From: Pristiophorus japonicus
Lineage: Eukaryota
Length of the DNA stretch: 64,000 bases
Direction: 5' to 3'
Assembly (NCBI RefSeq): GCF_044704955.1
Contig: NC_091982.1
Location: 235,662,001 to 235,726,000 of the forward strand
The notes beneath the pieces were generated by a model, which did no database searches, was not told the origin of the DNA, and saw only the letters and a list, made by a program, of their open reading frames with translations. Each line of letters opens with the position of its first letter. Positions within the stretch are counted from its first letter, which is position 1. Both the position numbers and the translations under genes were made by a program. Of the stretch, positions 19,385-21,060 are shown piece by piece.

Positions 19385-19757
19385 TTACAGTATTGTAGCT
19401 TAATTAGCAATTTCCTCTCCCATTTGTTCGCCCCCATCCCACCTGTATGCCGTGACCGACCTCGTCCAAATCAGGGTTTCCCCCTAAGCCTTCGATTACT
19501 TTTGAAAATAAATCTTTCCGGTTGGCCCTTTGGAACATTTCAATACAGTTTGATCTATATTAATCTGTCAGCTTTTAAGTTCACACTTTCCAGCTACAAA
19601 ACCTCGCGTGCCGGTAAAACATTATGACTTGTTAATATATATGTTTCCTTTACTGCCCTGTTATTGTATATTGTGCTTAAAACAACAAATTAATGGGTGT
19701 GAGCAGAGGCCATTTTCAGTGTAAAGAATTTCTAACCTCTACCCATTTAAGTAACTT

Positions 19758-20306
19758 TTTTTTTAAAAGAACTGAAGGTTTTTAATTTCTCTCCAAAATA
19801 TCACGCGCCCCCGCGTTGAATGTTTTCTTGCTCACTGCTGCAACCTGACCCGCGATTCTGTCCAAGTCTCTCTGCCCCTGTGGAGTCAGCCTGCGACCAC
19901 CGTTGGGGTCCTTCTCCACCATCTTCAGCCCCTCGAGGGACTGCAGCACCCTCCTGGCGACGGACTTGGAGCCGCGGCTGAAGTGACTGGGCTTCACGCC
20001 GTTGCGCTGGCGGCCGCCATAGATCTTGGTCATGGCTCCCACGCCGACCCCTCCCCGCAGGTACAGGTGACGCACCGTGGAGGCAGCTCGGGTATAATAC
20101 CAGTTCTCATCGTAAGGGGCCAGCTCCTTGTGTTTGCCCAGCTTCACTGTGTCGACCCAGTCAGAAACCTTTAGCTTGCCCGACTTCTTGAGAAAGGCGC
20201 CCAGAGCTCTGACGAACTCCTGCTGATTCACGTCTTTGACCGTTACGCCAGGCATCGTCTCTATGCTGCCGCCTGCACTCTGCACCAGAAAAAACAAAAG
20301 GGCTAT
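19758..20306 (-). pseudogene. RPS19: Processed retrocopy of 40S ribosomal protein S19 (ORF 19782-20255, 157 aa)
   Basis: [18 protein letters not shown]...[12 protein letters not shown] without introns; 5' pyrimidine (TOP-like) tract, ATTAAA signal, A9 tail, 7-bp TSD GTAACTT (19751-19757, 20307-20313). Confidence 0.93.
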
Positions 20307-20318
20307 GTAACTTGTTCG

Positions 20319-20553
20319 TTTTTTTTTATTTGTAGCCAATCTTTCCAATTCTTTGTCAAATCACAAACGCCAGAGGTCACCTTGCACACATCAAGGATCA
20401 CTCTGCGCCAATGCTCTTAGCCAAAAGGCCGAGAGCCACTGCACCGTTCCTGGAAGTACTGCAATACCAGGTTCGTGCCATGGAGGTGGATGGATCAGCA
20501 ACCCCACACACCTCCGTGGAGGTGGATGGGTCAATCCGCCCCACCCACCTCCT
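20319..20553 (-). mobile_element. U2 snRNA-derived, circularly permuted, poly(A)-tailed retroposed element
   Basis: Minus strand: U2 3' stem-loop IV (ACCTGGTATTGCAGTACTTCCAGGAACGGTGCA, 20472-20440) precedes the U2 5' end (TCTCGGCCTTTTGGCTAAGA, 20434-20415), then unique sequence, AATAAA and A-tract. Confidence 0.75.
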
Positions 20554-20842
20554 ATAGCTGCTTAGAGTCACCTACAGCTGTAAATAATCAAATGTATTCC
20601 ATTTGGCTGTGCAGACCCATTACTTTAAATTCCTAAACTTGAGCACTCCTTTCTGCGAATGGTGACAGTGAAAAACGACACAGAAATTGGTTGTAGTCTG
20701 TTGACGAGGGAAACTTTCCGACTTGGACCTGTCCTGATTGGCATCCAGGACTGCAAAAGTGGACGTTCCTCTGAGGGGCAGGGGCTTTTTCAAGAGCTTG
20801 TATTTTAATTTAGCTGGATATGTTGCTAGAGCCTCTGTGGTG

Positions 20843-21060
20843 TCAGCTGTGGCTCAATGGCAGCACTCGCGCCTCTGAATCATTAATGGTTGTAGGTTCA
20901 AGTCCCACTCCAGAGACTTGAACATAGGCAGACACTCCCAGGGAATGCTGAGGGAGTGCTGTGTTGTCGGAGGTGTGCCGTCTTTCCAGGGCTCCTCGGC
21001 CCTCTTGAGTGGAAGTAAAAAGATCCCATGGCATTATTTCAAAAGAGCAGGGGAGTTGTA
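20843..21060 (+). mobile_element. Partial Deu-type tRNA SINE
   Basis: Same head and body as 2609-3072. Confidence 0.75.

Follow-up and report, generated by a model that had tools for sequence, protein, structure and literature searches.

SINEU retroposons, which carry U2 and U1 snRNA heads, have been described solely in crocodilians, and the accessible text of the original report records none outside this group (Kojima 2015, PMC4494074); the accessible portions of two later papers (PMC5381603, PMC5786205) mention SINEU only by citing that report. Crocodilian SINEU owe their mobility to Tx1-Mar elements, which group with Keno, and the same text leaves their transcription as an open question, given that snRNA genes lack an internal promoter and no transcript was found, and proposes promoters lying upstream (PMC4494074). 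Keno possesses an APE-type endonuclease and has its insertion site in common with Utopia, according to the available section of PMC4640811, and the 3' flank of its target is given in the available section of PMC6136364. The nearest precedent for an element living in a host RNA gene, judged from the available part of PMC3414825, is provided by the R2 SIDEs of Drosophila.

A 64,000-nt stretch of the genome of the shark Pristiophorus japonicus (the window) contains on its minus strand, at 20319-20555, a copy of a poly(A) retroposon of ~345 nt, of which the 3' two-thirds remain (Table 1). By its class features, the family to which this copy belongs is almost certainly a SINEU-type retroposon family assembled from pieces of U2 and U1 snRNA. 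A first-pass annotation of the window had described two tandem hairpins, U2 stem-loop IV and the U2 3' end lying upstream of U2 stem-loop I, and a non-U2 stretch with AATAAA and an A-tract, all of which are present in that order. Local alignment to the U2 gene of the same genome gives scores of 68 for the 3' piece and 41 for the stem-I piece, against a maximum of 26 in 500 shuffles, and the stretch folds with z = -4.9, an equally good fold being reached by none of 200 shuffles. The U2 covariance model of Rfam, a check that the annotation had proposed, recovers U2 positions 7-26 only, at 19.5 bits, below the gathering score of 46. The collinear U2 above cut-off that marks a U2 gene or processed pseudogene is absent, and the annotation was right that this is not an ordinary U2 pseudogene. 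A match to the Rfam prion pseudoknot (29 bits, cut-off 39) was put down to chance on the GGTGG repeat. The AATAAA is created at the junction of the tail's GAAT with the A-tract, and is lacking in the subfamily that occupies U2 gene arrays (see below). No target-site duplication was found at the window copy. Parts of the stretch are contained in eight sequencing runs from three studies, among which no RNA run is listed; one of the eight has a small share from a second organism.

Table 1. Parts of the window element and its immediate neighbour (window coordinates)
Feature	Position	Strand	Basis or remark
5' truncation point	20553..20555	-	~position 117 of the ~345-nt element, immediately 3' of the Sm-site remnant
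Diverged U2 stem-loop III, copy 1	20518..20552	-	aligned to U2 97-147 in full-length copies; multiple alignment; fold
Diverged U2 stem-loop III, tandem duplicate	20482..20515	-	direct repeat and alignment
U2 stem-loop IV and 3' end (U2 ~148-186)	20440..20478	-	local alignment 68, shuffle maximum 26
Second, internal U2 stem-loop I (U2 7-26)	20415..20434	-	Rfam U2 7-26
Non-U2 tail, 84 nt	20331..20414	-	alignment; no Rfam or Keno-type LINE match
AATAAA/A-tract, retrotransposition tail	20319..20330	-	A-tracts also in other copies displayed
RPS19 processed pseudogene	19751..20313	-	Pfam Ribosomal_S19e, E 7.7e-55

An RPS19 pseudogene is inserted 5 nt from the A-tract of the SINE and is flanked by a 7-nt duplication of its own (20307-20313 and 19751-19757), on which ground a single chimeric SINE-RPS19 retrocopy was rejected. 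Its frame is open and extended to 155 aa, its 5' leader is rich in pyrimidines, and an A-tract is present. On the other side of the element, upstream of it at ~20840-21000 (minus strand), lies a dispersed repeat that is common to the flanks of two other loci (L010 and L011).

A genome search with the window element yielded 1,548 first-look candidates, of which 40 were scored, and all 40 are at least 97% identical; the single copy that the annotation had named as grounds for refutation is therefore not what the genome holds. A 22-nt diagnostic motif has 4,958 exact matches genome-wide (G000; control, 0), a lower bound for window-like subfamilies. In an unbiased sample consisting of the first 60 consecutive motif loci of contig C1, target-site duplications of at least 7 nt are present at 43 loci, compared with 12 of 177 mismatched flank pairs, and tandem copies occur at nine. 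The proposal of a multicopy, snRNA-derived SINE family with target-site duplications is borne out by these counts. The unit is short (~345 nt, below 500 bp) and multicopy, with a common structure and a poly(A) tail, as in SINEU; full copies contain a T5 run. Its head is U2/U1 rather than the tRNA, 7SL or 5S head of classical Pol III SINEs, and a Rfam scan of simpler copies returns U2 alone above cut-off. One copy, L250 (G000:C13:105039411-105039750, minus strand), shows A-to-G changes at 19 of its 35 substitutions, clustered in the 3' 200 nt, a pattern consistent with ADAR editing of an RNA intermediate fixed by reverse transcription.

Comparison of flanks places the start of most top-scoring copies at U2 +1, ~117 nt further 5' than the window copy. 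From this point a full copy runs through U2 2-35, U1 3-52, a repeat of U1 30-47, U2 97-147 (stem III and what remains of the Sm-site region), stem III a second time, stem IV (U2 to 186), U2 7-29, tail and A-tract; the main scores of the head pieces U2 2-35, U1 3-52 and U1 30-47 are 58, 58 and 31, where shuffles reach 26 and 28 at most. With starts taken from the alignment to whichever of several reference copies fitted best, 23 of the 60 C1 copies begin within 8 nt of +1 and 37 after position 8, with ~18 beginning at positions 110-125, as the window copy does. The apparent permutation is thus a head-to-tail U2 dimer viewed through the commonest truncation. Because full copies begin at U2 +1, the labels 'circularly permuted' and 'retrocopy of a circular U2 transcript' given by the first-pass annotation find no support, the 3'-before-5' order being produced by 5' truncation of the dimer. 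The Sm site and branch-point region that it had reported missing are indeed missing from the window copy. They are not missing from the family, in which full copies have the Sm-site region and older subfamilies the branch-point region; the U2 5' end and Sm-site region are absent from the window only because this copy is 5'-truncated at ~position 117 of 345. The hairpins left unassigned by the annotation are a diverged, duplicated U2 stem-loop III, and the U1-derived patch and the copies inside U2 genes lie outside what the window copy displays.

Relatives of a simpler kind are also present in the genome, with 820 first-look candidates for one of them, and 190 3' modules were catalogued as a biased set. 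In the simplest subfamily, an almost intact U2 and 5 nt of the array gene's 3' trailer are followed by U2 7-35/38 and a ~50-nt tail, with a short microhomology at the dimer junction; the internal stem-loop I here extends to U2 35-38. In other subfamilies stem II has lost 9-12 nt; U1 patches and duplications in the tail come next, and last the stem-III duplication, which simpler subfamilies lack. Older subfamilies retain the branch-point region. This order is a putative one, read from structure. The internal U2 piece stops at or near the Keno site, which suggests a U2 gene carrying a short insert there as the ancestral core. Such an insert would have given rise to a core of U2 5' stem and tail, of which the internal stem-loop I is likely to be the head, and a 3'-extended U2 may then have been joined in front of the core through a template jump at the short microhomology. 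The stem-II deletion, the U1 patches and the duplications of stem III and tail would have come afterwards. Alignment of copies traces the tail to an ancestral one of ~50 nt, without a match in Rfam, that grew through internal duplications. The tail has no convincing match to U2, for which 22 of 500 shuffles are as good on the plus strand and 193 of 500 on the minus strand, or to the Keno-type LINE described below, for which 34-149 of 200 shuffles reach the scores. The comparison of the tail with LINE 3' ends that the annotation had proposed was made with this LINE, and its suggestion of a LINE 3' module found no significant match there (34/200 and 71/200 shuffles as good). At one further locus (L260), short tandem repeats of U2 positions ~12-53 lie upstream of nested SINE copies.

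U2 gene arrays were surveyed over five stretches (C1003, C1832, C1868, C4309 and C19), in which 270 units were counted by their upstream end. Intact U2 is present in 238 units, 17 are SINE-headed and 15 carry a LINE, one of them together with a SINE, such that ~12% of the sampled units (32/270) are occupied by one or the other. In the 17 SINE-headed units the SINE begins at +1, replacing U2 1-37, and those units that were read onward continue through its A-tract into U2 38-191; the Keno site (U2 37/38) is the end point of SINE and LINE alike. The 200 upstream bases are those of intact genes in 16 of the 17 array loci checked, and the remaining locus agrees at 136 of 200 by an ungapped count. 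One further SINE-headed unit (L219) lies on C9, in a cluster whose upstream region differs from that of the arrays. Dispersed twins exist for two array variants: L244 and L245 match the main one with 0 differences (323 and 321 columns compared), and L248 and L249 are identical to a second; these four dispersed copies have unrelated flanks and long A-tracts. Among its 40 best matches, the main variant occupies 16 array places and two dispersed ones. The array subfamily is the sister of the window's subfamily, to which it is 89% identical.

The window's own subfamily is absent from the 270 array units, has no matches behind the array-type upstream end and was not found behind the second upstream type in the stretches examined; the commonest dispersed variant of the array subfamily likewise has no exact promoter-linked twin among the loci examined. 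Both could reflect loss through array turnover or an incomplete assembly. The upstream DNA, from its position before 238 intact U2 genes, is the putative promoter, and the copies borne by U2 genes are probably promoter-driven source genes. Two U2 gene types are present (the C1003 array; the C9 clusters; L021, L140), which differ in upstream region, 3' end and spacing, with ~764-bp units that include a GTT microsatellite as against units of 18-21 kb, and the bases of the SINE match the first type (~764-bp units). At an array end on C19 (69.6-69.73 Mb; L285-L296, L214-L216), LINE or SINE is present in 16 of 17 units, compared with 16 of 253 in unplaced array contigs, and tandem LINEs there insert into each other's U2-like heads.

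The LINE in these arrays is ~5.7 kb in length with a modified U2 1-44 head. Its ORF2 is 1,145 aa in all 19 complete array copies and its ORF1 569-572 aa in 17 of the 19; two further array LINE heads have no 3' end within the stretch examined. ORF2 possesses an endonuclease of the Exo_endo_phos type, reverse transcriptase and zf-RVT, and ORF1 a zf-CCHC domain. The closest named relatives are shark and ray proteins (71-75%), which points to a cartilaginous fish as host; identity is 37% to BAC82621.1, 'pol-like protein [Danio rerio]', a record not established as Keno, and 31% to the genome's other Tx1. Its 3' flank in U2 genes is the Keno target flank of the available section of PMC6136364, with insertion 37 nt into U2, and the LINE is called Keno-type on the basis of this insertion site and its domains. 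In a C9 U2 cluster, a copy of the sister SINE and a LINE 3' end are each followed by U2 from position 38. Use of U2 37/38 by both means that the SINE shares its target with a Tx1-clade LINE, as SINEU do, and the annotation's choice of Keno/Tx1 as the relevant LINE proved apt.

Outside the arrays, the Keno-type family is dispersed genome-wide (2,609 first-look candidates), and the SINE adjoins 7 of 13 dispersed LINE loci, several of which share one duplication; these 13 loci were chosen by LINE similarity, and one (L199) also surfaced in the SINE search. At seven matches, each lying inside an older, dispersed copy of the SINE, a window-type 3' end is fused to U2 position 38. A 4-mer like that of the U2 target follows the A-tract in 11 of 59 SINE copies, against a background of 6.2% (p about 0.001), in a test blurred by heterogeneous tails, and no significant signal of this kind is seen in dispersed LINE copies (2/20). 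In the unbiased C1 sample, none of the 60 loci adjoins the LINE and none is located at the U2-38 site. No tail in common between the SINE and the Keno-type LINE was found. The idea that the U1 patch abolishes the Keno target was weakened by one array LINE copy that sits in a SINE head at the matching position. Taken together, the Keno-type LINE is very likely to be the main mover of the SINE. A U1 gene array, too, has a 5'-truncated Keno-type LINE and a SINE copy inside its repeat unit (L194, L198; G000:C2321).

It is likely that this SINEU-type element is copied by the Keno-type Tx1 LINE and transcribed using the promoter of the U2 genes it enters. Pol II transcription of a SINE-headed U2 unit would start at +1 and run through the A-tract, and the Keno endonuclease and reverse transcriptase would return an RNA copy to U2 genes, thereby renewing the source genes. 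Relaxed specificity would deliver copies to thousands of other sites, where they would lie without U2 upstream DNA, the window copy included. An elaboration of this cycle, which we consider unlikely, would have source genes rebuilt at U2 +1, transcribed as snRNA, assembled and routed in the manner of an snRNP, and reinserted by Keno at U2 clusters. Stem I, the Sm-site-like U-run and stem IV would in that case be retained because the RNA is assembled and routed like an snRNP, and subfamilies would come and go as array turnover gains and loses source units.

With the same SINE and the same Keno helper, the copies in U2 genes could instead be mere recent landing sites, the RNA being supplied by read-through at dispersed loci or by adjoining promoters, as Kojima 2015 suggested for the crocodilian elements. 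Such a reading would accommodate the failure to find a promoter-linked copy of the window's subfamily and the lack of an exact array twin for the commonest young dispersed variant among the loci examined. It is nevertheless improbable, given that full copies begin at U2 +1, with no common flanking extension seen upstream, that each of two array variants is matched exactly by dispersed copies, and that the main variant is found at 16 array places and just two dispersed ones among its 40 best matches. More doubtful still is that another element of the L1/Tx1 clade, such as a CR1-targeting Tx1, is the main mover and that Keno accounts only for a few copies at the U2 site. The absence of U2-38 locations and Keno neighbours from the 60 unbiased loci, the lack of a tail in common with Keno, and the presence of 4 of 66 SINE loci at the target of the CR1-targeting Tx1 all lean that way. 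The exact use of U2 37/38 in genes and in older SINE copies, the SINE beside 7 of 13 Keno loci, the weak U2-like target bias of dispersed copies and the genome-wide dispersal of the Keno family itself argue for Keno. The CR1-targeting Tx1 was rejected as main helper, as it lacks a U2/U1 head in the nine loci read and accounts for only those 4 of 66 SINE loci; it is likely to move some SINE copies, and Keno may not be the sole helper. This CR1-targeting element is the second young Tx1 family of the genome (L102-L135; L127:443-4363, minus strand); its copies, 97-98% identical and with an intact 1,306-aa ORF2, insert at one site of a CR1-like repeat and are found in tandem trains.

The window copy taken alone, with its U2 3' part before its U2 5' part, would suit a retrocopied U2 RNA of circular or permuted form, a LINE 3' module, or one of many independent U2/U1 template-switch chimeras, and the recombination of U1 patches and heads between subfamilies (L004) is also in keeping with these origins. 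All three are very improbable for the family, since full copies begin at U2 +1 and have many derived changes in common, a LINE body lies upstream of the tail at none of the loci in two sets (30 and 60), and graded subfamilies lead back to an almost intact U2 and core.

As described in the accessible text of PMC4494074, SINEU-1, -2 and -3 resemble the shark family in their U2/U1 heads, repeated 5' snRNA additions, U1 patch replacement and partial duplications; in a poly(A) tail, an internal oligo-T, a length under 500 bp and tandem copies around one duplication; and in a Tx1 helper that carries an snRNA head and has no tail in common with its SINE. The likeness is drawn from structure, and the host is P. 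japonicus rather than a crocodilian. The target is the U2 gene and the element's own U2-derived body, whereas that in crocodilians is Mariner-N4, and the shark element is a U2 dimer with a tail, with copies at +1 of real U2 genes. From the available sections of PMC6136364 and PMC4640811, the partner LINE agrees with Keno in its site and in its Exo_endo_phos-type endonuclease and reverse transcriptase, but departs from it by carrying a U2 1-44 head in modified form, by its wide dispersal as well and by its likely support of a SINE. Utopia targets the same U2 site with a restriction-like endonuclease, unlike the Exo_endo_phos domain of the partner LINE (available section of PMC4640811). R2 SIDEs, in the available part of PMC3414825, are likewise non-autonomous residents of a multicopy RNA gene that use the machinery of a site-specific LINE and a host-gene transcript; however, they are internal deletions of R2/R1 released by ribozymes from rRNA co-transcripts, whereas the shark element is itself built of host snRNA and is dispersed in thousands of copies. 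No shark SINEU or Keno-dependent SINE was found in the openly available literature searched; there is an appreciable chance, though well below even, that the family is already catalogued in Repbase, Dfam or a subscription journal.

The family extends snRNA-headed SINEs from crocodilians to a cartilaginous fish, and one genome displays a graded series that leads from an almost intact U2 to a U2/U1 mosaic. With a SINE at +1 of U2 genes, identical young dispersed copies and an intact helper LINE alongside, candidate source genes become available for the question raised by SINEU. If the proposed cycle is true, the promoter of the U2 gene would answer how snRNA-headed SINEs are expressed.
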